Part shown: positions 11,769 through 31,590 of the stretch, in pieces
Layout of the letters: each line of letters begins with the position of its first letter
How positions within the stretch are numbered: the stretch's first letter is position 1
Made by a program: the position numbers and the translations under genes
Assembly: GCA_021731495.1 (NCBI GenBank)
Contig: JAKFXG010000024.1
Span: forward strand, 1-45,346
DNA length: 45,346 nucleotides
DNA from: Candidatus Parcubacteria bacterium
GTDB lineage: Bacteria > Patescibacteriota > Minisyncoccia > Phycocordibacterales > Phycocordibacteraceae
Reading direction: 5' to 3'
The notes under the pieces: generated by a model
The model's input: only the letters and a program-made list of their open reading frames with translations
What the model was told of the DNA's origin: nothing
The model's database searches: none

Positions 11769-12509
11769 CTAAAGAACTCCAGAGATTTCGGCGACGAACT
11801 TATTCGCCGCCATAGCCGGGTCTGGATCGGCCGTGATGGGCCGTCCAATCACCAGGTAATCAGCACCTGCTCGAATTGCTTCAGCGGCAGCCATCGTCCG
11901 ATTTTGGTCGTCCGGCTTACTGTTCACAGAACGTATTCCCGGTGTGACTTTGAGTAATCCTCTGAGTTCTCTTCGTTTACCGAGGAGCTCGAGCTCTTGT
12001 GGCGAACAAACGATGCCGTCACATCCGGCGAGTTTCGCTTCGCGTGCGAATTGGAGGACTTTTGCTTTAGTCGGCCCACCGAAGCTCAGATTAGCGTCGT
12101 TCTCCTCGCGCGATGTCAGCACAGTAACTGCGAGCACAAGCGACCGGCCTTTATTCTCGACGGCTGCCATCATTGCGTCGATACCGGCCGAAGCGTGCAC
12201 GTTGAACATTTTGACGCCCATTCTAGCAACCGCTTTCGAGGCGCCGGCGACCGTGTTGGGGATGTCGTCGAATTTTCCGTCGTAGAAGACTTTGCCGTTA
12301 AGCAAGTGAAAGAGTTCACGGATCTCCTCAAAAATAATGGATGCTTCCGTTCCGCTTTGGGCCGAAGTCAATTGGGCCAACATCGTGGTAGTGAACTCCA
12401 GTCCGACCTTAAATCCACCGACGTATGGAGCAAGCAGCTTCACGAGGTAAAGCGCTCTCGTAGCCGAGTTAACGTCGAGCGCGACGATAATCCTATCTTT
12501 CGCTTCCAT
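11769..12509 (-). CDS. pyrF: orotidine-5'-phosphate decarboxylase
   Basis: IIVALD, FKVG, DGKFDDIPNT, VTVLTS, TPGIR, DDQNR, VIGRPIT; SD GGAGG upstream. Confidence 0.96.
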   Translation of the reverse strand: MEAKDRIIVALDVNSATRALYLVKLLAPYVGGFKVGLEFTTTMLAQLTSAQSGTEASIIFEEIRELFHLLNGKVFYDGKFDDIPNTVAGASKAVARMGVKMFNVHASAGIDAMMAAVENKGRSLVLAVTVLTSREENDANLSFGGPTKAKVLQFAREAKLAGCDGIVCSPQELELLGKRRELRGLLKVTPGIRSVNSKPDDQNRTMAAAEAIRAGADYLVIGRPITADPDPAMAANKFVAEISGVL

Positions 12510-12629
12510 CTGTAACCTCCCATGAATTGAGAACACGTAACTACTTCTGGACAATCCAGCTAATTACTTGGGACTACACTACGTAAAAGCGGGTATAAAG
12601 TCAAAGCTGGAATATATTATAATTTGGTT

Positions 12630-13082
12630 ATGGAGTACAAGAAAGTACGGAAAATGTCTGGATTAGAAGCTGCATATTTAGCTGGATTGATTGATGGCGA
12701 AGGAACGGTGACTTTGACGAAGAGAGAAAAGAACGCACAGCGGGCCATCACGATTACAATCGCAAATACCGAACGTGAACTCTTAGAGTATCCCATGCGC
12801 GTTATCAGTGCGGGCATTATTTCTTCCAAGCGAACGCAAAAAATACACCACACGCCTTCGTTCGTATATCGGATAACTGGACGACAAGCGCTTTCCGTTC
12901 TACAACAAATTGTTCCCTACTTACATTCTTATAAGAAACAGCGTGCCAAATTCGTTTTGGCTGAATATATCAACATTACGCCACGCAATGGACGATACAA
13001 TCAAGATTTGTTGGAGAGGAAGAAGATCTTCGACGAGAGATTTTTCCAGATAACTGCAAAACAAACAACACCCTCGAAATGA
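12630..13082 (+). CDS. free-standing single-motif LAGLIDADG endonuclease
   Basis: AAYLAGLIDGEGT, ITIANT, PYLHSYKKQRA; TATAAT 6 nt upstream of ATG 12630. Confidence 0.88.
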   Translation: MEYKKVRKMSGLEAAYLAGLIDGEGTVTLTKREKNAQRAITITIANTERELLEYPMRVISAGIISSKRTQKIHHTPSFVYRITGRQALSVLQQIVPYLHSYKKQRAKFVLAEYINITPRNGRYNQDLLERKKIFDERFFQITAKQTTPSK

Positions 13083-13096
13083 AGGTGTTGTTTGTT
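13060..13096. terminator. 13-bp hairpin, probable native tmRNA terminator at the empty att site
   Basis: AACAAACAACACC-11 nt-GGTGTTGTTTGTT, T-rich end on both strands, 5 nt from the outer att core. Confidence 0.75.
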
Positions 13097-13273
13097 AATG
13101 ATGTGGAGACTGATGAATGACGTTAGAACCGCTGTGCGCGATTGCGAAAATAGGCAGTATATACAATCTCTTAAAGAATTTAGTAGCACATGTGAATCGC
13201 GGGTCGTCTAGGGTAGATTGCGGGAATACGTTAGAACCTTTCACTTCCTAGTGTAGAAGAGTATGCTGATCTC

Positions 13274-14170
13274 ATGACGGATGATGAAAACATCAAGGCG
13301 GTGATAACGGCAGAAGATTTCAAAAAAAGATTCAATCTTAAAAACATTGGTTTTCCAGAACCAACCGTTTTTTCTAATGCAGTCGGTATTTCAGTAAAGA
13401 AGGTCTACCCAGATGAACATGCTTCGATGTATGGCGTTGAGATATCTAGGAGGAGGCCACAAACAACACCTTTGTTAAGCCTAGATGCTCATGTTGTCTA
13501 TGGAAAAGACACAAAAGATGGCGTGACGTTGATGATGGACAAGAAACTATCCGAGCCGATAGATTTGGATTTCACAGATGAATTTTCCTTCGATACCAGT
13601 ACAGGCAAGTTTTACCATCGAGGACGACAAATTGAGCCGGAAGAAATCTTCTCAATAATGGATACAGCTCACAAAAAGCCAACAAAGTTAACCGCGGGTT
13701 TACTATTAAGGATAAGGCTGTGGATATGGAGAATATTAATCCCACATACAATAAAGTACCTAGACCTCTTTTTAATAAAAGCACTCTGGATTATTTCCGG
13801 AGAAAAAATCAAGGGAAACATTTGGAGGCGAGTAGTTAATATCTACTCCAGCATAAAGTCCCAGATAGAAGAAGATCAAGATTTTGTGAAATCAAAACCA
13901 ATGGATTTTTTTGGGTATGAGGCAAAAAGATGGTCCGTTGTATTTTACTGCTCTCTTCATTTGGCTATATTCTCTTTCTTTTACTGGAAAGGCATCAAGT
14001 ATACTTTCGTAACTCAGATTCTAGATAACAACTTTCTTGCGCTGTGTTACGTCGTAGTTTCGTTTGCATTTACCGAGTCATGGCTTCCCAGACGTATTAA
14101 ATCGATCATAAACGAAATTACGCCGCGGGTTTTCAGCAATATCTCCAATAGGAAAATTTCCGTAAGTTAA
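13274..14170 (+). CDS. hypothetical membrane protein
   Basis: 298 aa, soluble N-half, hydrophobic segments in C-half; TATGCT 6 nt upstream; AT-rich. Confidence 0.75.
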   Translation: MTDDENIKAVITAEDFKKRFNLKNIGFPEPTVFSNAVGISVKKVYPDEHASMYGVEISRRRPQTTPLLSLDAHVVYGKDTKDGVTLMMDKKLSEPIDLDFTDEFSFDTSTGKFYHRGRQIEPEEIFSIMDTAHKKPTKLTAGLLLRIRLWIWRILIPHTIKYLDLFLIKALWIISGEKIKGNIWRRVVNIYSSIKSQIEEDQDFVKSKPMDFFGYEAKRWSVVFYCSLHLAIFSFFYWKGIKYTFVTQILDNNFLALCYVVVSFAFTESWLPRRIKSIINEITPRVFSNISNRKISVS

Positions 14171-14248
14171 TTACGGACCCAGTAGAACCTCCAATCCGTT
14201 AAGACGCGCAAAACGGAACATGGAAGAACGTGAATAATATATACCGAT

Positions 14249-14362
14249 GTGGACATCTCGGCAGAAAGTTGGAACTCAATTCAGGACTTCGTGTTCGGTT
14301 GGTACGAAGCGCTACATGGCGCAGGGATGGTGCCCAACGGCGCAAAATTGGCTCACGTTTAG
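14249..14362 (+). other. inner att junction encoding a detached recombinase C-terminus
   Basis: GTGGA-N5-CGG matches 23274 GTGGA-N5-CGG in codon phase; open for 37 codons, VDISAESWNSIQDFVFGWYEALHGAGMVPNGAKLAHV*. Confidence 0.7.
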
Positions 14363-14399
14363 CGTCCTGGAGTCACATGGTGGTAATTGAGTATATGGG

Positions 14400-14951
14400 C
14401 TAAAGGGGTTGAATTGAGGCAAGACACTCGTCGAATTGTTCGGCTGTGAGAACAAGCGCATTATCCGTTCGAAAGGTATTCTTTCCTACTCCTGCGAGAT
14501 AGCGAAGATATACACGCTGTCGAAGAAATGCGTTAAAGGCTTTCTCCGATCGGGCTACGAGTACTCCGATCCTGCCAAGGGCAGATGCATTTACCAGATC
14601 CCCAAGACAATGTTTTTTGCTGCCGCTATCTTCGACCTCGATGCAAAGGAGGCAACGTGCGTTTTCGTTGAAATACATTATTCGATCAAGTGACGTGCGA
14701 TCCTCGGCGTCCTCAACATTTCGATTGTGTCTTTCAATCAGCATCTCAATAAATTCGCGTGTTTCTTCGAGAAGTTCTGTGTACCGTGGCCCGTATCTAC
14801 CTTCGATAGCGAAGGGACCTACGGCTATATCCACCACAGGGGCATAGATTTGTCGTCCCTGCCCTCGGAATGGATACCATTGGACTTCGACATCTTCGTA
14901 TATTCGGTCGAGGAGAGTCTTCGCAGCATTTTCGTACTCGCGTTCCGTCAT
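14400..14951 (-). CDS. PD-(D/E)xK restriction-endonuclease-like protein
   Basis: EVEVQW...VVDIAVGP...CIEVEDSGSKKH pattern. Confidence 0.6.
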   Translation of the reverse strand: MTEREYENAAKTLLDRIYEDVEVQWYPFRGQGRQIYAPVVDIAVGPFAIEGRYGPRYTELLEETREFIEMLIERHNRNVEDAEDRTSLDRIMYFNENARCLLCIEVEDSGSKKHCLGDLVNASALGRIGVLVARSEKAFNAFLRQRVYLRYLAGVGKNTFRTDNALVLTAEQFDECLASIQPL

Positions 14952-15030
14952 ACAAGAATATTCTCACATCAACACTCTTCTTGCTACGGCAAAACTCGAC
15001 CGCGCAAATGCGATACAATGGCAGTATATT

Positions 15031-15891
15031 ATGAATGCGGTAACACAAGGTGCGTTTCTCCTAAGGATCAAGACGCTAACGGGAATCGCTTTCCAGGACT
15101 TTCTTAACGAGTTGTATACGGCGGCCTACGGATCATCCTTTGTATCTATCAAGCAAAAGAGGGATAAGGGATGTGACGGAATACTGAATGGTAATACGAT
15201 ACTCGCGGCGTACGCTCCTGAAAAATACGAGCTACGAACCTTCAAGAAAAAATATGGTGAGGACTTTGATTCTTATAAGCAGAACTGGTCTTCGACGCAC
15301 TCAAATTGGCAGGTGGTCTACAATGGTGAGCTACAAGCGAATGGAGCCCAGTATCTAACCGAACTCAAAGCCGACGTACAGATTATTCAGAGAGGCCAGA
15401 TTGTTGCTATAGTTGCATCTCTTCCTTGGGAGAAGAAGCGCTCGCTCGCGGCATATTTGAAAGTGGACGACCAGTTCCTAATCAACGATGCGTTGGAAGA
15501 AATAATCGACGACCTCTCTAAAGAGGTTGCTCCCTCTTCAATCGTGTACGCGAAGCCACTCTATATGCCGGATAAGGTTGCTCTGAATTTCACTCGTATC
15601 GAGGCAGATACAATTTTGGCAGAATACGAATCGTACATGGAGTATTTCATCTCGTTAAAGGGGTTGCTGACTGCCGATGGCGAGAGAGTGGGAAATCTCA
15701 AGTCCAAAATCTGCAGAGATTACGTGGGGCACAGCGGGTCTTGCAACGAAAGACTCACTGCTATGACAGAAGAATACGCTGGAAAGAAGGTCGGGGATGA
15801 CTGGTATCAGAAAATGATTCGAGTTGTACTGGTATACTTTTTCGAGCAATGTCTGATTGGAGAAAAAACACCACACGAATCCCATGCTTGA
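15031..15891 (+). CDS. lmuA: Lamassu/ABC-three-component effector (nuclease-like N-domain plus CTD)
   Basis: FQDF...DKGCDG...AYAPE N-terminus, C-terminal YFFEQCLIGEK typical of ABC-3C CTDs; first of three overlapping genes. Confidence 0.75.
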   Translation: MNAVTQGAFLLRIKTLTGIAFQDFLNELYTAAYGSSFVSIKQKRDKGCDGILNGNTILAAYAPEKYELRTFKKKYGEDFDSYKQNWSSTHSNWQVVYNGELQANGAQYLTELKADVQIIQRGQIVAIVASLPWEKKRSLAAYLKVDDQFLINDALEEIIDDLSKEVAPSSIVYAKPLYMPDKVALNFTRIEADTILAEYESYMEYFISLKGLLTADGERVGNLKSKICRDYVGHSGSCNERLTAMTEEYAGKKVGDDWYQKMIRVVLVYFFEQCLIGEKTPHESHA

Positions 15892-16114
15892 TTTACACCC
15901 AGAAAGCGATTTAACTCTCAGTCCTGTTGTCCTTGGGAGTGCCATAGCAACTTCACTCAGTCCAAGTAAGTATGAGTTCATCGACTCTGTCATGAAAGAG
16001 TTTCTTAGTGCTGACCCTCGACGCAGTACAGAGCAATTCATGGATTCGTTAACCATGCTCTATGCACTCGGGCTCGTAGAGTACTTCGGGCACCGAATAA
16101 AGCTTCCAAAATGA
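15884..16114 (+). CDS. lmuC: Lamassu/ABC-3C middle component
   Basis: 76 aa, wHTH-like ...SLTMLYALGLVEY; overlaps both neighbours. Confidence 0.75.
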   Translation: MLDLHPESDLTLSPVVLGSAIATSLSPSKYEFIDSVMKEFLSADPRRSTEQFMDSLTMLYALGLVEYFGHRIKLPK

Positions 16115-17883
16115 TATTTCTTAGAAAACTTTATTCCGAATCTAAACTTTTTGAACCTGTCGAATTTAAGAATGGCATTAATGTGGTTCTTGGACGTTAC
16201 TCTTCAGGGAGTGATAGCAAAGAAATTAACGGTATTGGTAAATCAACTTTCGTAAGACTCATCGACTACTGCCTTGCGTCAGAGGGGTCAAAAAGATATT
16301 TCGATGTCAAAAAGAAAACCTTTTTGAAGGGCCATAGCTGCACACTGGTGGTTGAGATTAATGGTACAGATTATTTAATTCAGCGTTTTTTTGACAAGGC
16401 ATCCATCACTTTTGCTGAGATTGGAGGTGCTGTCGATCCCGTGGAATATACGGATAAAGAATTTCGGAATGTCTTGGGCGCGAAATTCTTTGCACAAGAT
16501 CCTTATGGTGGGGTAATAGAAAGCAACTGGTACCGAACCCTCCTCAACTTTTTTATTAAGGACGACGTCGATCGTCACGAAAGAAACGATCCTCTAAATT
16601 TTCTTAATCCATCGATCCGCAACTCATTATTGCTGGTGTATAATTTTTTCCTTTTGAATCTTCCAAATGGAAATATCTACGATTTCGATAAACATTCCGA
16701 AAAGGCGAGGGATCTTCGTGAGACTAAAACCAGCATTGAGAAACAATCGGTAGAGTTGTCTGGAAAGCGATTAGAGGATCTTGAATCGGAACGCTCTCAG
16801 ATCGAGAAGAAAATAAAACTGATCGAGAAGAGCCTGAAGGAATTCCAATTCATCGATAACTATAAAGACATACAAAACAAACTTGTGGAGCTTTCGGTGG
16901 CAATCTCTACGAACCTGCAAGAATCGAGTTCGCTTAGGAGGCGATTGCAGGCTATAGAAAGTAGTTACGCAATCGATATTTCCGTTGATATTGAGAAGGT
17001 TAAAAGCATCTACGAGTCCCTCAAACAGGGGCTCGGTGAGGCAATTGTACGCCCGGTCAAAGACGTCATTACTTTCAGGAAGGAAATAGCGGAAAATCGG
17101 AGGACTTTCCTGACCACTAAGGAAAGAGAAATCAAAGACGCGATAGGAGTGGTGAATAAGAAAATCATTGAGCTTGAAAGCCGACGAATAACACTCTATA
17201 AAACCTTGGATGAAAAAGAGGCGATGGACAGCATCCGGAACTCATACGAAGAGCTTATAGAGTATCGCTCCCAACTACAGCAGAATCTTGCTGTTACAGG
17301 CAAAATTGCTCAGCTGAATGAGGCGATCGCAGATCTCGATTTACAGATTTCTGGTGACGTCAAAAACCTTGTTGCCCAGCAATTAGTATTCGCCGATAAG
17401 GTAGAAGAGCTTCAGGGGATCTTTACGGACTTCGTTCACACAGTCGTTGGGCAAAGCCAGTCGATCGGATCTGCGTACTTCGATATTAAGACTCGTCCGG
17501 ATAAAAGATCACCTGTGCAGGTGACTATCGAGGTTCCAAAAAGTGCGTCTTTGGGCAAATCACGTTTCAAGATACTGGCTTACGACCTAACTGTTTTCTT
17601 TAACCTTATAGACGATCAGCGAGCCCTACCGCATTTCTTGCTCCACGACGGAGCTTTCCATGGAATCGATATAAAAACGACTATAAACGTTTTGAACTAC
17701 ATTGCTAAACGATCCGAAGGTAGAAGGTTCCAATATATATTCACCGCTAATGAGCATGAAATCGACTCCTCAAGTCATGAGGGGTCTTATGGGCAACTCA
17801 GTTTCAATCTCAAAGATGCGACAATTCTTGTCTTGGAGGATAAGCCCGAGAAGATGTTTCTAAAACGGGAATTTCAATCTTAG
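16111..17883 (+). CDS. lmuB: SMC/Rad50-like ATPase (DUF2326-type)
   Basis: Walker A NGIGKST followed by IDYCL, long coiled coil, SLGK signature, Walker B FLLHDG, FQYIFT. Confidence 0.85.
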   Translation: MIFLRKLYSESKLFEPVEFKNGINVVLGRYSSGSDSKEINGIGKSTFVRLIDYCLASEGSKRYFDVKKKTFLKGHSCTLVVEINGTDYLIQRFFDKASITFAEIGGAVDPVEYTDKEFRNVLGAKFFAQDPYGGVIESNWYRTLLNFFIKDDVDRHERNDPLNFLNPSIRNSLLLVYNFFLLNLPNGNIYDFDKHSEKARDLRETKTSIEKQSVELSGKRLEDLESERSQIEKKIKLIEKSLKEFQFIDNYKDIQNKLVELSVAISTNLQESSSLRRRLQAIESSYAIDISVDIEKVKSIYESLKQGLGEAIVRPVKDVITFRKEIAENRRTFLTTKEREIKDAIGVVNKKIIELESRRITLYKTLDEKEAMDSIRNSYEELIEYRSQLQQNLAVTGKIAQLNEAIADLDLQISGDVKNLVAQQLVFADKVEELQGIFTDFVHTVVGQSQSIGSAYFDIKTRPDKRSPVQVTIEVPKSASLGKSRFKILAYDLTVFFNLIDDQRALPHFLLHDGAFHGIDIKTTINVLNYIAKRSEGRRFQYIFTANEHEIDSSSHEGSYGQLSFNLKDATILVLEDKPEKMFLKREFQS

Positions 17884-17891
17884 AGTAGTGA

Positions 17892-19193
17892 TTATCGCCA
17901 CCATCCGAAGAAGAAAGACTTTAGTTTTTCAAACAGACTCTGTTTCTGAAGAGGCGTAGATTGTGTAGATGGGGCTTGGTTTAGTAGATTACTCGTTGCG
18001 ACCCTAAAAGAAGTCGATGCAATAGGGTCTTCGACATTAGGAACTCTCTTTGACTGTCCTAAGTCATTCGCTCTGGTTGCTTGCATTGCGCCAGAATTAC
18101 CTGCAATTGGCACTACATCGGGCGCCACGCCGTACTTTGCCTGATATTCTGCCCGAGTCATCTTTACTGGTACAGATACACCTCCATTTTTTGCCGCCAA
18201 AGAAGCGTAGTCAGGTGCAGTAGTCTGAATACATTTTGCGGTACTTGTATCCCACTGGTAACCAGTTTCGCATCCGCAGATGACACTTTTATTCACTGAA
18301 TCTACATATGCATCGACCCTATTAGTAGCGCCGATTCCGCTTTCAACTTTGCACCAAACGTTTAGTGGAATGCATTGATATGGGCTATTAGCATCGGGAC
18401 CAAAACCAGTGACACACTCACACCGATTAATTTCGCTATTATAGTAGCCAAACTGACCGTGATCTGTTTTGCAAGACATTGCAGATGCAAGCAAGGATTT
18501 GTAGTAGGCACTCTCCTTTTCTAATCGAGCAAGTTCAACAGCTTTATCGCCAATACTATCCAACGCCTGATTCTGTGTGCTGCTCATGCACTGGTTGTAT
18601 TGGTTTAGCTTCTGTTGGTATGTGTCGATGTCAGATCGGCATTGGCTCAAACGATTATTGCTCACGTCAGTAGCGAGCAATCCGGTAGCTCCATCTGATG
18701 CTCTCATGCTTGAGTACTGGCTTTCTGATGTGCACCCCGAGCTCGAAGGGTAAATGCATTGTACAAAGATTCCCGTCGAATTTTGACGTTGCAATTGGTA
18801 TAACCTCTCATCTATAGTTTTCCGTTCTTGTTCCAGTTTATTTTGAAAATCCTCTTGGGCCTTGAGAAGTTTTTTGGAAGGGTCTGGTAAGGGGACTGTT
18901 TTTAAGCCTCCCGAATTAAGAAGCTTGTAGAGATTCGTGTCACCACTACTTTTAATGCCGTAGTAATTTGAAAGGTATGTGTCGGGATTACCAGAAGTGA
19001 TTTGACCAGTATTGGGATTTAAATTGCCAGGGAAACCGTAGTTGTTGTAGGGATTGCTATCGACGTCGGTTCGGTAGTAAGAACCTACAAATGTGTCTCC
19101 TCGGTAGTACGGACTCACGAGAGTCGCTGCGTGTGAGAATGAAGGGAACCCGACCAGCAAGAAGAGAGCCGCAAATACCAATTTCTTTTCCAT
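17892..19193 (-). CDS. secreted cysteine-rich protein
   Basis: signal peptide MEKKLVFAALFLLVG..SHA, YYRGDTFVGSYYRT..NNY domain, coiled coils, EGF-like CxC..G..C repeats, S/T/P tail, aromatic C-terminus. Confidence 0.8.
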   Translation of the reverse strand: MEKKLVFAALFLLVGFPSFSHAATLVSPYYRGDTFVGSYYRTDVDSNPYNNYGFPGNLNPNTGQITSGNPDTYLSNYYGIKSSGDTNLYKLLNSGGLKTVPLPDPSKKLLKAQEDFQNKLEQERKTIDERLYQLQRQNSTGIFVQCIYPSSSGCTSESQYSSMRASDGATGLLATDVSNNRLSQCRSDIDTYQQKLNQYNQCMSSTQNQALDSIGDKAVELARLEKESAYYKSLLASAMSCKTDHGQFGYYNSEINRCECVTGFGPDANSPYQCIPLNVWCKVESGIGATNRVDAYVDSVNKSVICGCETGYQWDTSTAKCIQTTAPDYASLAAKNGGVSVPVKMTRAEYQAKYGVAPDVVPIAGNSGAMQATRANDLGQSKRVPNVEDPIASTSFRVATSNLLNQAPSTQSTPLQKQSLFEKLKSFFFGWWR

Positions 19194-19220
19194 ACATCCT
19201 ATGTTTTTGGTTGGTAACGC

Positions 19221-19299
19221 AAAACCCGCCACCACGAACCCTTGCGGGTCTACCAAGGTTTCCCTTGGCAACATAGGACATGCCGTGATGACGGGTTTT
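19221..19299 (-). ncRNA. C4-like cloverleaf antisense RNA
   Basis: 79 nt; 16-bp closing stem AAAACCCGTCATCACG/CGTGGTGGCGGGTTTT; three hairpins (GAAA and GCAA loops); complementary targets up- and downstream. Confidence 0.72.
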
Positions 19300-19443
19300 C
19301 TATGTCCTATGATTTCGTAACCATGCCAACGCCTGAGCGGTGGTTTAGGTCAATGCAGTCCGAAAGTGGACTACAGTAGCATCGTATCAGGATTGAGCTA
19401 AAATGGGTATATGAGGCGAATGATCTTAGGGTTTTCAGAATGA

Positions 19444-19995
19444 ATGCTTATGGCGGTAAAAACTACACAAACTAAGCGTCGCGTCAGTTTGGTTGAAAAG
19501 GCTAAAAAGGATAAGGAAGTTGGGGCTGGTGTAGGACGCGGAAACAAGATGGAGAGCACACGAGCAGCTTTCCGAGCGTGGTTACTGAAGCCGCGTATCT
19601 TTTTGGGGAAAGGAGAACACGTGCTTAATCTTTTGGGGATTACGGATGTAGAGACTGTCGAGCTCTATAGCATCCGATCGCAAGGTGAGTTCTCGGAGAA
19701 GTTTGGGGTGGGAGAACCAACACTGTCTCACTGGAAACGAGAGATGCAGAACGGTAACGACTTTAAGGACTTCCAAATTGAGATGCGCGGACTTACAAAA
19801 AATGTGATGGGTGCGCTCTATCGTCAAGCGATGGCCGAGGGTGACGCTCCTCGTGTGAAGCTATGGCTACAAACCGTTGAGGGCTGGAATGAGAGCAGTA
19901 ATTTCAAAGTGGCAATGGGGGTAGAACAAGGTCTCACGGACGAAGAAAAAGCTGCAATTGATCGTATGTTGGAAAAACTCGGAGCACCAACTTAG
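19444..19995 (+). CDS. HTH protein, terminase small subunit-like
   Basis: SQGEFSEKFGVGEPTLSHWK HTH followed by VMGALYRQAMAEGDAPRVKLWLQ. Confidence 0.55.
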   Translation: MLMAVKTTQTKRRVSLVEKAKKDKEVGAGVGRGNKMESTRAAFRAWLLKPRIFLGKGEHVLNLLGITDVETVELYSIRSQGEFSEKFGVGEPTLSHWKREMQNGNDFKDFQIEMRGLTKNVMGALYRQAMAEGDAPRVKLWLQTVEGWNESSNFKVAMGVEQGLTDEEKAAIDRMLEKLGAPT

Positions 19996-20002
19996 TGTAG
20001 AG

Positions 20003-20752
20003 ATGACAAAGCTTTTGAACCCCTCACGACTTGATTGGATAGCGTTTCTTGCTTGTCAAAACGCTGTCCGACTCCATCGTGATGCCATTGCACTGTACAA
20101 AGAAGGACGATATCCATCTGCCTTCTTTTTGTCGATCCTTTCTCAGGAAGAACTTGGCAAGATGCATATGATTAATGATCATTCGTGGCACTTAGGCGAG
20201 TGGCTGAATGACTTATTGGAAATCAAAGATCAGGCAAAACGTGCCGCTATGGATAAGGAGAATGAAAAGTATCAATCTGAAGTTTTCTCATCCTCCTATC
20301 TCCATCCTCTTAAGCAAGGATACTTCGCCCATAATTCTCCTGTAGAGGATTTTGTCTGGTTACGCAAGGCATTAAAGCACGGGGAACCCCGCCAAGATGT
20401 ATGGCAGGGCGTGCTCGACGCAAAGAAGCAGACCGCAGCCTATGTCGGCTTTCCAAAGAAGAAAAGAGGGGTTGATTTTAGTGCTGGCCTGAAACATCCA
20501 TGGCAAATCAAAAAAAGAGATGCACAGAGACAGATAACGAGAGTCAACGATTATCTCTTGGTTTTTGGATTGGGGCTACGATATACATGTTATGTGTTTG
20601 AAAATGAAGACATAATCAACTATCTAAAAAACAAGCGATTTCTGAAAAACATCGGACTCACTTGGCAACACCGAAGTAGATCTGCTTTCAAGCAGATAGA
20701 GTCTCTTCAGGTGGTGCTAAAAGACAAGATCGTTAGAACGACAAAGAGGTAA
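20003..20752 (+). CDS. AbiV-family (HEPN) abortive infection protein
   Basis: NAVRLHRDAIALYKEGRYPSAFFLSILSQEELGK, HPLKQ, KQTAAYVG. Confidence 0.85.
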   Translation: MTKLLNPSRLDWIAFLACQNAVRLHRDAIALYKEGRYPSAFFLSILSQEELGKMHMINDHSWHLGEWLNDLLEIKDQAKRAAMDKENEKYQSEVFSSSYLHPLKQGYFAHNSPVEDFVWLRKALKHGEPRQDVWQGVLDAKKQTAAYVGFPKKKRGVDFSAGLKHPWQIKKRDAQRQITRVNDYLLVFGLGLRYTCYVFENEDIINYLKNKRFLKNIGLTWQHRSRSAFKQIESLQVVLKDKIVRTTKR

Positions 20753-20764
20753 GATAGAGCGATT

Positions 20765-21454
20765 ATGCGTGGTGACACCAAGAGTGACGAACTTTTCTAC
20801 CAGATTTCGCTCGGGGATGTTTTTCAAACGGATGTCAGAAATTGTCGGGATAGATTTTCCATTCCGAAAGACGGATTGGATGCAGAGGATATTCGGCGAT
20901 GGTATATCTCTCTCGGCGATAAATATGGCGAGTTTTTAGATGTGCTTACAGATATTCTGCGACGCTATAAATTAGCGAGTTCTTTTATTAATCCGTTAGA
21001 GGAGTATGTAGTTACCAATGAAACTCAGAATTTATATCCACTTCGGCCACATCCTTTTTATGATATTGATACACCACAAGGTTATTTGGCAGAGCAACAT
21101 AGAAAAGATGCGAAACCGTTCGTAAGTTTATTGATTTATGACTACGCCAGCTTGGACGAGATTCAGGCGTACCTAAAAACCTCATGGAAGTACGTCAAGA
21201 AAGAACTCGATAAACAGCGTGGTGAACCGGCGCACAGAATTCGCAGGTCAACACACAAAGAACGAGATAGAGAAGTTCTTGCGCTCTACGAGAAATCACG
21301 CGAGGAACTTGGACTCAAAAAGGGAGAATACAAAGAGATGGCTGTAGCTCGGATGCTTTCTGGAAAGTACGGAACAATTGATTGGGATCACATTAAGAGG
21401 ATTGTTGCGCGAATGCGAAAGATGAAAAGGGGAACTCATAAACCTCCTGTTTAA
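20765..21454 (+). CDS. hypothetical protein, basic C-terminal HTH-like domain
   Basis: 229-aa ORF; ERDREV...VARML...IKRIVARMRK. Confidence 0.7.
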   Translation: MRGDTKSDELFYQISLGDVFQTDVRNCRDRFSIPKDGLDAEDIRRWYISLGDKYGEFLDVLTDILRRYKLASSFINPLEEYVVTNETQNLYPLRPHPFYDIDTPQGYLAEQHRKDAKPFVSLLIYDYASLDEIQAYLKTSWKYVKKELDKQRGEPAHRIRRSTHKERDREVLALYEKSREELGLKKGEYKEMAVARMLSGKYGTIDWDHIKRIVARMRKMKRGTHKPPV

Positions 21455-21478
21455 GAGTCCTCTACTCATTTGTCTTTG

Positions 21479-21508
21479 AAGGCGACCATTGGCATATGGT
21501 CGTTTTTT
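21479..21508 (+). terminator. intrinsic terminator
   Basis: GCGACCAT-TGGCAT-ATGGTCGT followed by TTTTT. Confidence 0.75.
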
Positions 21509-21574
21509 GCGACCTGGTGACGTCACTGGAACAGCCGGCAGCGTACGTCACCACGCTACCGGCTGTTCCAATTC

Positions 21575-21775
21575 ATGCTTACCTTACAAGAATGCCGAAA
21601 ATACACAGGGAGCGAACTCACCGATGAAAAGTTGGAGGAGGTTCGTAATGTCCTGTATGTCTTTGCTAATAAACTGGTCGACGATTTCTTAAATTTAGAG
21701 GATGAGCCAGTCAGTTCAAACTACCCACATGAGAGGGTTGCAATTGTGTCGATACCAAGGCACAACATCAAGTAA
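21575..21775 (+). CDS. small helical protein upstream of the recombinase
   Basis: 66 aa MLTLQECRKY..LTDEKLEEVRNVLY, ends 7 nt before the recombinase ATG. Confidence 0.65.
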   Translation: MLTLQECRKYTGSELTDEKLEEVRNVLYVFANKLVDDFLNLEDEPVSSNYPHERVAIVSIPRHNIK

Positions 21776-21782
21776 GCTTCGT

Positions 21783-23348
21783 ATGTCACAACTCGCACTC
21801 ATATACGCTCGTGTTTCGTCAGAGAGACAGGCGACAGAAGGTCACGGCCTTGATGCACAGGAACATCGCTGTCGCGCCTACGCTGAGACAAAAGGTTATG
21901 AGATTGAAAAAGTATTCAGGGATAGTTTTAGTGGAGGCGGAGATTTCATGAATCGACCAGCGATGTCTGGCCTACTCGGCCATGTAGATAAATTTGCACA
22001 CCGAAGTTACGTCGTGCTTTTTGATGATCTCAAGAGACTTGCAAGGGATACGGCTTTTTACTTGAAACTCAAGGATGCATTTAGAGTTCGCGGCGTTAGG
22101 TTGGAGAGTCCGAATTTTGTAATGGATGATTCTGATGAAGGTTCGTATGTTCAGCAAATTCTGGTAGGGGCAGCAGAACTGGAGCGCAAGCAAAATAGGC
22201 GACAGGTTATTCAAAAGCAAAAGGCTCGACTTGAGAGAGGGTACTGGTCGTTTTGCCCGCCTACAGGATATCGCTTCGAAAAACATCCTGAACATGGGAA
22301 GCTTCTCGTGCCCATTTCTCCCGACGCCGAACTCATTAAGCTCGCATTAGAAGGTTACGCATCGGACAAGCTATACGATCAAACCGCTGTTCGAGATTTT
22401 CTCAGAATCAATAATTTTAGGAATGGTCGCACTGTTCATATGTCATTGGTACGGCGACTTCTTACTGAAATCCTTTATGCTGGGTACATAGAATATGTTG
22501 GATGGGAAATAGCGAGGCGTAAAGGATATCACCAAGAAATGGTAAGTATTGAGGTGTTTGATCGGGTTCAGGCGAAACTGACTGGTAAGTCATATTTGAT
22601 TTCAAGAAAAGATTACCGTCTCGATTTCCCTTTACGAGGGTTCGCTCTTTGTGAAGAGTGCGGAGGAGCGCTTACGGCAGCTTTTGCAAAGAGGAAATAT
22701 CCCTATTACTGGTGTAAAAGGGCTGGATGTTCATTGAAGAATAAAATGATTTTGAGGGAAGAAATTGAAAAAAGATTTGATGCACTACTTAAAGAGATAA
22801 AACCGCGGCCAGAGGTTTTAGAACTTTCCAATAAGATCCTTCTTGATGTATGGAACGAGCGAGTAAGCAAACTCGAAGGGTATCGTACAGTTCTGCAAGG
22901 AAAGCTACGGATCGCACGCAGTCAAATTGACGGGCTATCGATGCGCCTTGCGAGGGCACAGAACGAAGACCTGGTGGGCGTTTATGAAGACCAGCTCATT
23001 CGCGCTAAGCGCGAAGAACGAACGCTGGCAGAACGCATCGATCGACTCTCAGAGCGCTCAGGGGACTTCGAAGAAGCTTTGAAGCAAATGTTTGCGGTGC
23101 TGCGTAACCCGGCAGCTGTATGGGCAAAACCGGATATAACGCAGAAAAGATCAGTTTTGAAGCTGATCTTTTCTGCGAAATTGCGATATAACCCTGTGTC
23201 TGGGTTTCAAACACCTGAGAAATCCTTAATTTACGGGCTATTTGAGCAAATCTCTGCTCAAAAGTCCCAACTTGTGGAGGTGGCGGAAATCGAATCCGCG
23301 TCCGAATCCGTCTATGAAAGCGAGTCTACGACGCGTAGTCAGCGTTAG
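21783..23348 (+). CDS. large serine recombinase (integrase)
   Basis: IYARVSS catalytic motif, FSGG..RP, DDLKRLAR, PTGY recombinase domain, Zn ribbon CEECG...YYWC...C, coiled coil; last 24 codons are antisense to tmRNA. Confidence 0.95.
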   Translation: MSQLALIYARVSSERQATEGHGLDAQEHRCRAYAETKGYEIEKVFRDSFSGGGDFMNRPAMSGLLGHVDKFAHRSYVVLFDDLKRLARDTAFYLKLKDAFRVRGVRLESPNFVMDDSDEGSYVQQILVGAAELERKQNRRQVIQKQKARLERGYWSFCPPTGYRFEKHPEHGKLLVPISPDAELIKLALEGYASDKLYDQTAVRDFLRINNFRNGRTVHMSLVRRLLTEILYAGYIEYVGWEIARRKGYHQEMVSIEVFDRVQAKLTGKSYLISRKDYRLDFPLRGFALCEECGGALTAAFAKRKYPYYWCKRAGCSLKNKMILREEIEKRFDALLKEIKPRPEVLELSNKILLDVWNERVSKLEGYRTVLQGKLRIARSQIDGLSMRLARAQNEDLVGVYEDQLIRAKREERTLAERIDRLSERSGDFEEALKQMFAVLRNPAAVWAKPDITQKRSVLKLIFSAKLRYNPVSGFQTPEKSLIYGLFEQISAQKSQLVEVAEIESASESVYESESTTRSQR

Positions 23349-23679
23349 TGTCTAAGGCAGGATGCGAGGAACGCAGACGAAACCATTCCTGCCCGATCCC
23401 TTGTTTAGATGTACCGGCCAGGATTCCGGACATCGATCCTACAGATAATTCCGCCCATTCCTCTCGGCTGTAGAAACCCGGAGGATGAACGTCGCGAGGC
23501 GAAGAGCCGTTAGGCTTTCGCGTACGCGAACGCGAAGTCATTCATACCGAAGTATGGCGACTTCACGCTTGCAAGAGTGTTCTTTGCAAGTATGTTTTCC
23601 CGCCAGATTAAAGTGTTGGGCGGGAGTGCACTGCGTCGCACATCTTTCAAGGTACAGACCGTCAAAGCCGGTCACCCCC
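23275..23679 (-). ncRNA. ssrA: tmRNA
   Basis: 5' GGGGGTGACCGGCTTTGAC, 3' GACGCGGATTCGATTTCCGCCACCTCCA with G3-U70; tag ORF 23587-23510; smpB upstream; CCA not encoded. Confidence 0.95.
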
Positions 23680-29329: not shown

Positions 29330-29403
29330 CCGTCCCTAGCTCAATTGGTTAGAGCACCGAGCTTATACCTCGGCGGTTCCTGGTTCGAGTCCAGGGGGAC
29401 GGA
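29330..29403 (+). tRNA. tRNA-Ile(UAU)
   Basis: acceptor CCGTCCC/GGGACGG, anticodon arm CCGAG-CTTATAC-CTCGG, T arm CCTGG-TTCGAGT-CCAGG, discriminator A. Confidence 0.93.
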
Positions 29404-31590
29404 CTATTCTAAATGCATCTCTTTGTCGGCAGTGAGCGCGCGGAGCGCGAGGGCAGGATGCTGCTGTAGTTCTGGGTCGCTGGCAACGAGGTGCGCTGCC
29501 TCGGTACGCGCGGCCTCCACGAGTTTAATGTTCTTCAGCGCTTCCATTGCGATGTCGGAGACACCCCACTGTTTGCCGCCAGAAAGTTCTCCTGCACCAC
29601 GGAGCGCGAGGTCATATTCAGCAAGCTCAAAGCCGTTCTTCGCAGTGACGAATGCTTTGAGGCGGTCTTTCGTCGTTTGTCCGAACGATTCGGGGAGTGC
29701 GAAGCAGTATGACTGATGCGTTGAGCGGATGACACGGCCGCGCAGCTGATGCAACTGCGCGAGTCCGAAGCGCTCGGCTCCTTCAATGAGAATGACCGTC
29801 GCATTTGGCACATTCACACCCACTTCGACGACCGAAGTCGCGACGAGAATATCAATTTCTCCTTTTTCAAATCGCTTCATTGTTTCTTCTTTCTCTGCCG
29901 GTTTCATTTTGCTGTGAAGGATGTCTATCGTTGCGTTTTTGAATACTTCACGCGAGAGGCGTGTCGCCTCTGCTTTTACGGATTTTGCTTGAAGTGCGAA
30001 TTCCTTTGCCGGATCCGGTTCGTCAATGCGCGGACAGATGACATATGCCTGATGACCGGCGGCAAGCTCCGCGCGTACGCGCTCGTAGGCAAGTTCGCGT
30101 TTCTCCGGGCCAAGTACTTCGGTGATGATGGGCTTTCTCCCTAGTGGCATCTCGTCAAGGATTGAAAGATCAAGGTCGCCATAAATAGTGAGCGCGAGCG
30201 TACGCGGGATGGGTGTCGCCGTCATCGAGAGTAGGTGCGGCGCAATGACGCCCTTGGTCGCAAGTTTTTGTCGGTGCACGGTACCGAAGCGGTGCTGTTC
30301 GTCGATGATGGCATAGGCGAAGTATTTAAATGAAAGGGACTTCTCTATGAGCGCGTGCGTGCCGATGACAATTGGTATTTCGCCATTGGCGACCATTTTT
30401 TTAAATGCTGCTTTGGAAAGTTTTGCTGACTCTTCGTAGCGTACTTTCGACGGGAATTTCCGGCATTCACTTCCGGTGATGAGGCCGATTGGGATCGGGT
30501 GGTCCTTGAAATAAGAGACAAAGGTCGAGAAGTGCTGCTTCGCGAGGATTTCAGTCGGGCAAAGGTACGCGACCTGGAGTGTGCCGGCAATCCGCCTTTC
30601 GCCCCTAAGGGGCCCCTTCGGGGGGAGCGAAGTCGCGACGAGGTACGCGGTCGCCGCCGCGACCGCAGTCTTGCCGCTGCCCACGTCGCCCTCGAGGAGC
30701 CGAAGCATGGGATGCGTTTTCTCGAAATCATCCACAATGGTATTGATCGCGCGCATCTGTGCGGTAGTTGCAGGGAAGGGGAATGATGCGACGAAGTCGG
30801 CAAGCGCCGTGCGGTCGACCGAGACCGGCAGGGCCTCCTCTTTCAAGAGGGCGCGGCGGCGCTGTTGCATGACAATCTGGAGCGCAAACACTTCTTCAAA
30901 AGCGAAACGCTTGCGCGCTGCCGTTGCGTCATCGAGCTTGCGCGGCGCGTGTATGAACACAAGCGCAGAAGAGAGTGTGGGCAAATTGTATCGCGCGAGA
31001 ATGTCCGAAGGTATAGGGTCGGCAATGTGTTCGTGCACGTTTGTCTCAAATACTTTTCGTACCGCGTGCAGGAACCAGAGCGAGGACACCCCCTGACTCT
31101 CCGGGTAGATGGGGTAGAGCGTCTCGCTCTCTATTTCGGCGCCTTTGGTAAATAATGAGTCGTGTATTTCGTCCGGCGCAATGGGCGACTTATCGATTTC
31201 CGGATTTGCAAGATACATTTTTGCGTCTTCACCAGCTATGCGCCCACTCACTTTTACGACCATGCCATCGTGGAGTGTTTTCGCGATGTAGGGTTGACTG
31301 AACCACATCATTTTTATTTTTCCCGATGCGTCTTCGAGCCATGCTTCGGCGACTGGCCGACGACTCTTCCACGTTCTCCTGATGTCGGGCTTACGCACAG
31401 TGCCGTACAGCGTGACTTCAGTGCCGGCTGTTGCGCCCGCGATCGTTCCTGTCGGACCTGCATTCTCGTAACGGGCAGGGAAGTGATAGAGCAGATCGCG
31501 AATGGTCCGTATACCAAGCTTATGGAGCGCCCGCTTCTGGTCGGGTTTCAGTCGGGTGAAATGGTGTTCGATGGTGTCTTGCAGATTCAC
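29404..31590 (-). CDS. recG: ATP-dependent DNA helicase RecG
   Basis: DLLYHFPARY wedge, EGDVGSGKT, PTEILA, DEQHRFG, MTATPIPRTL, AERFGLAQLHQLRGRV. Confidence 0.97.
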   Translation of the reverse strand: MNLQDTIEHHFTRLKPDQKRALHKLGIRTIRDLLYHFPARYENAGPTGTIAGATAGTEVTLYGTVRKPDIRRTWKSRRPVAEAWLEDASGKIKMMWFSQPYIAKTLHDGMVVKVSGRIAGEDAKMYLANPEIDKSPIAPDEIHDSLFTKGAEIESETLYPIYPESQGVSSLWFLHAVRKVFETNVHEHIADPIPSDILARYNLPTLSSALVFIHAPRKLDDATAARKRFAFEEVFALQIVMQQRRRALLKEEALPVSVDRTALADFVASFPFPATTAQMRAINTIVDDFEKTHPMLRLLEGDVGSGKTAVAAATAYLVATSLPPKGPLRGERRIAGTLQVAYLCPTEILAKQHFSTFVSYFKDHPIPIGLITGSECRKFPSKVRYEESAKLSKAAFKKMVANGEIPIVIGTHALIEKSLSFKYFAYAIIDEQHRFGTVHRQKLATKGVIAPHLLSMTATPIPRTLALTIYGDLDLSILDEMPLGRKPIITEVLGPEKRELAYERVRAELAAGHQAYVICPRIDEPDPAKEFALQAKSVKAEATRLSREVFKNATIDILHSKMKPAEKEETMKRFEKGEIDILVATSVVEVGVNVPNATVILIEGAERFGLAQLHQLRGRVIRSTHQSYCFALPESFGQTTKDRLKAFVTAKNGFELAEYDLALRGAGELSGGKQWGVSDIAMEALKNIKLVEAARTEAAHLVASDPELQQHPALALRALTADKEMHLE

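Follow-up and report, generated by a model that had tools for sequence, protein, structure and literature searches.

What RNA stands ahead of the cargo gene of a mobile island in a Candidatus Parcubacteria bacterium, and how might it act on that gene? The window, by which we mean the whole 45,346-nucleotide stretch of DNA analysed (contig JAKFXG010000024.1 of assembly GCA_021731495.1), carries on its minus strand a leader in which a preliminary description saw a C4-like antisense riboregulator, a 79-nt cloverleaf whose antisense strands a′ and b′ each have targets upstream and downstream. The motifs it named, the 5′ hairpin included, all lie at the minus-strand places it gave them (Table 1); it overlooked P1 and the family to which the RNA belongs.

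Identity and distribution of the leader RNA

An Rfam covariance-model search matches minus strand 19351–19237 to LOOT (RF03000) over the full model (1–121), scoring 68.9 bits where the cut-off is 46.4 (E value 9e-13). The P1 internal loop, P2, P3 with its GAAA loop and P4 of the model are all present in the window copy, the sole one in its genome. The stretch in question thus belongs to LOOT, a known orphan RNA family, and precedes a cargo gene carried by a mobile island. The C4 (RF01695) and c4-2 (RF02944) models found no match in the window, whether at the gathering score or at E ≤ 10, and RF01695 matched none of five genomes in a search whose controls gave no match either. With the Rfam match falling to LOOT and to neither C4 model, membership of C4/c4-2 is rejected; what holds of the C4-like riboregulator is its a1–a′–a2 logic, which covaries in the family.

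Table 1 Features of the leader and its island, in window coordinates
Feature	Position	Strand	Basis or remark
Predicted extended −10 promoter TGATACGAT	19381..19389	−	Sequence; predicted transcription start ~19374
Optional 5′ hairpin	19355..19374	−	Different-sequence hairpin at same place in L158 and L159 (by eye)
LOOT match, full model	19237..19351	−	Rfam RF03000
P1, predicted 11-nt GAAA-tetraloop receptor (CCUAAA 19349–19344 / CAUGG 19325–19321)	19319..19351	−	Family letters and covariation
a1 CATAGGACAT, 5′ strand of LOOT helix P2 (state A)	19302..19311	−	Pairs with a′
T5, 5′ strand of long-range helix P0; within P2 loop in state A	19284..19299	−	
a′ ATGTCCTATGTT, hypervariable switching strand	19270..19281	−	Partner of a1 or a2
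P3 hairpin, GAAA loop; holds b′ 19256–19251 (paired)	19250..19270	−	98% paired in family
P4 hairpin, variable tetraloop	19237..19249	−	
T3 (3′ strand of P0) with U-rich tract; together a predicted multibranch intrinsic terminator	19215..19236	−	Beyond Rfam model; −25.0 kcal/mol with T5
a2 AACATAGGATGT, second a′ target, abuts ATG 19193	19194..19205	−	Perfect a1 copy at same place in L158
TACGAA; TTGGTA; TACCAA	19319–19314; 19256–19251; 19216–19211	−	b1, b′ and b2 of the preliminary description
Cargo gene, 433 aa from ATG 19193	17892..19193	−	Hydrophobic N-terminus (signal-peptide-like, by eye), Cys-rich middle
Large serine recombinase of island, divergent from LOOT	21702..23348	+	Runs into tmRNA 3′ end
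tmRNA	23272–23679	Opposite to recombinase ORF	Overlap 23272–23348

The locus itself adds one more LOOT copy and a reading at the level of the family weighs more: the analysis gives boundaries and a testable mechanism for an RNA found in about one fifth to one quarter of the genomes sampled by phylum, class and order (30/151, 29/151 and 41/151, respectively, 39 of the last above the cut-off, with the window's own genome included in each). The relatives are labelled Patescibacteria (Minisyncoccia; Paceibacterota). LOOT occurred in none of 14 control genomes and in 12 of the 32 viral-contig matches to our search pattern.

The motif reportedly originates from a 224-motif survey (Weinberg 2017). 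Rfam types it as ‘Gene; sRNA’ and it is listed in the ZWD collection, according to the available part of PMC7779021, while excerpts of the CaCoFold paper (PMC7657543) give 28 unexplained cross-covariations within it. No function is stated in the accessible portions of the Rfam 14, Rfam 15 and CaCoFold papers, and LOOT goes undescribed in the main text of the motif survey (PMC5737381). We found no published LOOT mechanism in the literature; the supplement of the motif survey may already describe part of it. The Rfam model itself stops at P4, with T3, the U-tract and a2 falling outside.

At the position of the predicted −10 element, two homologous loci (L158 and L159, described below) carry TGATACCAT; a −35/−10 consensus scan and a classical terminator scan found nothing at the window leader. 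Upstream of LOOT, a TATAAT-like hexamer is present in 78 of 88 loci, a count made in AT-rich sequence and without a control. Some 7 nt past the −10-like hexamer, ACAA(C/T), probably the transcription start, recurs in 64 of 88 loci (upstream regions of L002–L088) and is absent from the window.

Two competing folds and a predicted tetraloop receptor

The family set comprises the 88 best-scoring loci from the searches, not every match. Seven were left out (parsing failed in L007, L028 and L056; P2 was mis-assigned in L024, L051, L058 and L072), and the 81 parsed loci fall into 64 a′ groups, with kinship among loci such that counts overstate independence. The 79-nt piece does form a multibranch fold, at −45.5 kcal/mol (z = −7.1; 0/200 shuffles as good), and its outer helix, P0, pairs T5 with T3. 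In a sequence-only MAFFT alignment of the 81 loci, from which the P0 columns were also chosen, 90.4% of P0 cells are paired as against 36–53% in slid controls, two-sided changes occur at 13 of the 14 pairs and the highest MIp pair of the entire alignment lies within the helix. Own T5:T3 pairings reach −24.6 kcal/mol compared with −13.6 kcal/mol for non-own ones, placing 73/81 loci in the top 5%, and at least five T follow within 8 nt of the helix end in 77/81. P0 and the U-tract together look like a long-range multibranch intrinsic terminator, as far as folding predictions go. Helix P2, formed by a1 and a′, covaries at all 10 pairs, so that the covariation proposed as a check is borne out in relatives, for a1:a′ as well as for the cloverleaf stem.

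P2 and P0 would not both be able to form fully, since only 2 nt separate a1 from T5 in the window and the two helices interleave. A two-state leader with conserved competing folds, P2 in state A and P0 in state B, is well supported by the comparison of loci. The median B–A energy is +2.2 kcal/mol, favouring A, and B is the lower in 25/81 loci, the window (state A −54.5, state B −57.9 kcal/mol) among them. When the window transcript is lengthened stepwise, A is predicted for ends at 19273–19231 and B from 19225 on. The predicted probability that a′ is unpaired in state B has a median of 0.52 and is 0.40 in the window. A possible extra helix between T3 and the 24 nt past the U-tract (own −10.8 versus non-own −8.0; 15/81 loci in the top 5%; window p 0.5) is commoner where a2 occurs (21/27 versus 28/54 without, Fisher p 0.03), a weak lead to something that could delay refolding.

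The core of the RNA points to a tertiary contact. P1 reads CCUAAA/CAUGG in 48/88 loci and CCUAAC/UAUGG in 24/88, its internal loop is conserved across the family and non-Watson–Crick covariation (alignment columns 8–36) marks the position at which these letters differ. Within a helix, CCUAAN...NAUGG is accompanied by a GAAA loop at fixed spacing, that of P3, 7–10 nt from a′, a count which is partly circular as GAAA was used in parsing; the P4 loop varies, and GNRA and UNCG loops are seen in the family. The canonical 11-nt GAAA receptor is CCUAAG-UAUGG (PMC1464144, available text), and a CCUAAC_CAUGG variant is discussed in part of bioRxiv 10.1101/2024.03.11.584472. P1 therefore looks like an 11-nt receptor for the P3 GAAA loop in its letters, and we infer that docking of P3 into P1 stabilises state A. 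Our P1+P3 search pattern also matched group I introns in L098 and L116. The GAAA/11-nt receptor of group I introns has the same order and letters as LOOT P1 except at the G-U position (A/C or C/U in LOOT). In LOOT, by contrast, the receptor would favour one of the two folds of a regulatory switch.

Antiterminator and terminator helices that compete at similar energy, beside a conserved P1 internal loop, are also what would be expected of a riboswitch-like or protein-controlled attenuator, in which a ligand or an element-encoded protein bound to the P1/P3 core selects read-through or termination. We regard this as unlikely: the tetraloop/receptor pair already accounts for the conserved letters, the downstream genes have no pathway in common and no regulator family recurs among the 111 scanned neighbours.

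The switching strand, its targets and a possible mode of action

In the window, the a′:a1 pairing is worth −13.8 kcal/mol and a′:a2 −12.8 kcal/mol. Pairing this strong was reached by 1/2000 shuffled flanks upstream and 2/2000 downstream, so the proposed targets on both sides lie beyond chance. Across the family, all 81 parsed loci have an a1, while a2 is significant both ways (top 5%) in 27/81 loci (window p 0.012 and 0.049), lies at most 4 nt from the start codon in 21 of these 27 and is missing or not significant in the other 54. By identity alone it is found in 23/81 loci as against 2.2% of non-own pairs, with the first seven positions identical in all 23. Differences between a1 and a2 show no G-U bias; six keep the pairing and 20 break it, mostly at the ends. 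The downstream target was described as masking the SD and abutting the start codon. It does abut ATG 19193, but only 3 nt part the window's AGGA from the ATG, and among relatives the a2 box is hypervariable; strict SD masking is therefore rejected, what a2 covers being the start region and not a conserved SD.

The a′ core is more variable than the other stems (family identity 0.32, versus 0.44–0.46 for P3 and T3), and a1 differs between co-resident copies in 4/5 multi-copy genomes, with the same a1 in both copies of the fifth (G016). L158, on the same contig as L160, is an orthologous island at the same tmRNA (~76% DNA identity) and its a2 is a perfect copy of a1, whereas L159, with a cargo gene of the same family (52% identity), has a wholly different but compensated a1/a′ pair and no significant a2 (p 0.23). 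That a2 tracks a′ and is placed at the adjacent start codon sits badly with LOOT as a free-standing sRNA that has its own promoter and terminator and other targets, the adjacent gene being expressed by leak-through, although the Rfam type, the promoter-like sequence upstream and the U-tract downstream would suit one. An ORF of at least 50 aa begins on the same strand within 150 nt of LOOT in 75/81 loci (a count without control), and the genome holds one further a1-like 10-mer, the same frequency as for a control pattern. We hold the free-standing sRNA to be quite improbable.

C4 RNAs have a second antisense strand, b′, with targets b1 and b2, and Rho-dependent termination downstream. For b′ the letters are at the positions named, but the pairings fail. 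In the window, b′ is the 3′ strand of the P3 hairpin and is buried there (unpaired probability 0.02), while b′:b1 and b′:b2 are worth −0.8 and −4.8 kcal/mol. Exact TACCAA occurs in 0.2% of local 20-nt windows, or 10.5% with G-U allowed, and is not conserved. Own and non-own b′ pairings are alike (3.94 versus 4.02 upstream, 4.80 versus 4.76 downstream), and in L158 P3 has changed with compensation, leaving GGCGTA at the b′ position, and the supposed targets have not changed in step. The b′/b1/b2 pairings are rejected on these counts. The Rho-dependent step also falls away, the Rho RNA-binding domain PF07497 being found in 0/5 genomes, the window's own included, compared with 9/14 controls.

Our main reading, to which we assign a probability of roughly 0.45, is that a two-fold leader gates the island's cargo gene and that its own short transcript tips the switch off in a C4/CI-like way. 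State A would form first, with a1 paired to a′ and T5 held in the loop, and would be locked by the P3 GAAA loop in its P1 receptor; transcription would then run on past the U-tract, with the start codon left open. In the alternative, state B, T5 would pair with T3 beside the U-tract, forming the predicted intrinsic terminator, and a′ would be released. Freed a′ may bind a1 of new transcripts, which would raise termination, and may also bind a2 beside the start codon, which would block translation; overall this would amount to negative feedback. Hypervariability of a′ would give each element a separate channel.

The excess variability of a′ and the differences between co-resident copies suggest, indirectly, that it acts in trans. 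Counting against the main reading, a2 is not significant in two thirds of the loci and state B is the lower in only 25/81. Because of the latter, a terminated RNA left unprocessed could go back to state A, with a′ hidden again, so a trans-acting RNA would need 5′ processing, with removal of the leader ahead of a′. As for RNase P, an RCCA is rare, standing at the P0 helix end in only 7/81 loci; RNase P RNA is present.

The main rival, possible in our judgement if doubtful, is a folding timer that works in cis only: state A would permit a burst of translation, after which P0 and a′:a2 would hide the start codon, with some chance termination and no diffusible RNA. It agrees with the order of A before B in the length series, it needs no processing signal, and a′:a2 pairing adds −14 to −23 kcal/mol where a2 occurs, across a U-tract-to-a2 gap of 9–52 nt that, on geometric grounds, the helices could span in cis. 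Yet a timer leaves the variability of a′ and the co-resident differences unexplained, and where a2 is absent, in two thirds of the loci, the timer reduces to mere fixed attenuation.

The reading with a′ acting in trans brings LOOT close to known phage RNAs. As with C4 of phages P1 and P7, the RNA sits in the leader of the very unit that it would regulate, the predicted cloverleaf is of similar size and antisense specificity differs between elements. The two also have in common a variable antisense strand whose targets lie to either side, one of them at a translation start (PMC12197685, in the part available). LOOT differs from C4 in lacking Rfam similarity to RF01695 and RF02944 (c4-2; the c4-a1b1 motif is in the same group), in having one antisense strand instead of two, in the absence of icd/ant genes and in its built-in U-tract helix and tetraloop receptor. 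P4 CI RNA pairs with sites on both sides of its own sequence, upstream and downstream, and thereby terminates transcription prematurely (PMC4825925); it is also an RNase P substrate (PMC5499578), according to excerpts of both papers; partial texts of PMC8198154 and PMC2864571 extend the C4/CI comparison. With P4 CI (seqA/seqC) and Gifsy-1 IsrK, LOOT would share a processed RNA made from the element itself that terminates by upstream and downstream pairing, and it shares an integrative element as its setting, but there is no sequence or model match, and LOOT would control cargo genes where CI controls replication genes. It is likely that LOOT is self-silencing in the manner of the C4 and CI RNAs without belonging to them, and a C4/CI-like mode of action is moderately supported.

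More tentatively, LOOT may be an independently evolved, Rho-free counterpart of C4/CI that is widespread in the integrative elements of ultra-small bacteria. A read-through fold locked by a ribozyme-type tetraloop/receptor contact would be opposed by a long-range multibranch terminator that frees a hypervariable 10-nt antisense strand, and this strand would silence elements of the same code in trans, giving orthogonal immunity channels without a repressor protein. If so, reduced genomes in which Rho is not detected would control incoming defence and surface genes by RNA alone, and the family would be a natural set of orthogonal RNA switches.

Island, cargo and mobility

The mobile-element setting proposed for the leader is borne out. 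The leader lies in a stretch of low G+C (0.39–0.48 over 13001–23000, versus ~0.50–0.59 in most of the rest) that carries the serine recombinase at the tmRNA end, an AbiV-type HEPN gene and a DUF2326/LmuB-like ATPase. No direct repeat was found between the tmRNA end and 12000–16000 as an att site, so the left border of the island is known from G+C alone. To the left of the cargo gene, a run of genes at 15031–17883, with an 85-aa ORF between, ends in a DUF2326/AAA ATPase matching PADLOC PDC-M68B and LmuB and is possibly an ABC-three-component defence system. A divergent operon at 19444–21454 encodes a 183-aa weak-HTH protein, the AbiV-type HEPN protein and a 229-aa unknown protein ahead of the recombinase; the HTH gene has 87% DNA identity to L158, where the HEPN gene is replaced or absent. 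The low-G+C stretch has at its left margin (12624–13082) a free-standing LAGLIDADG-like ORF, divergent from the pyrimidine genes.

Association with recombinases extends to the family. PF00239 was searched for in 44 of ~96 other LOOT-positive genomes, picked mainly for contiguity and holding 64 LOOT copies, and a serine recombinase lies within 10 kb of 43 of these copies, compared with ~4 expected (28 divergent, 14 towards, one otherwise). Tyrosine integrases lie near three of the remaining copies (L123, L125 and L128). So tight a link, together with near-exact direct repeats a1/a2 that show no G-U bias and an a2 ending at the cargo boundary, would fit repeats that work as DNA, as recombination or operator sites for cargo exchange. 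This seems to us the least credible of the explanations, given the G-U pairs throughout P0 and P3, the GNRA/UNCG loops, the RNA tertiary receptor and a one-strand polarity with promoter and U-tract.

As the preliminary description held, the window's cargo gene is not an antirepressor by Pfam, PADLOC or PHROG: apart from a weak N-terminal match, its protein has no family in these, and it does not match the icd-ant family. It has 10 homologues; its start position is shared by the homologues P0003 and P0004. Among 73 downstream proteins in the family, 32 have a Pfam match (zinc ribbon 6, DUF4352 4, SNase 4, DNA methylase 4, SHOCT 3, superinfection immunity 3, T5orf172 2 and others), and none is of an antirepressor family. 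Superinfection-immunity and membrane proteins, both found among the cargo families, are ones that a resident element would more usually express. The switch could result in transient expression after entry, among other outcomes, and this would suit a methylase cargo better than a superinfection-immunity or membrane one.

Several loci (L122, L130 and L133, partly L121, L126, L134, L136 and L138) share a compact block of ParB-methylase, small HTH/terminase-small-like, terminase-large-like and serine recombinase genes, possibly a satellite or reduced prophage family that bears LOOT, with no capsid family among its scanned neighbours. Reverse transcriptase genes lie a few kb from LOOT in two further loci (L123:2012–3235 and L135:12185–13231). 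Elsewhere in the window, positions 29330–29404 hold a tRNA-Ile with a TAT anticodon, which is unusual for bacteria.
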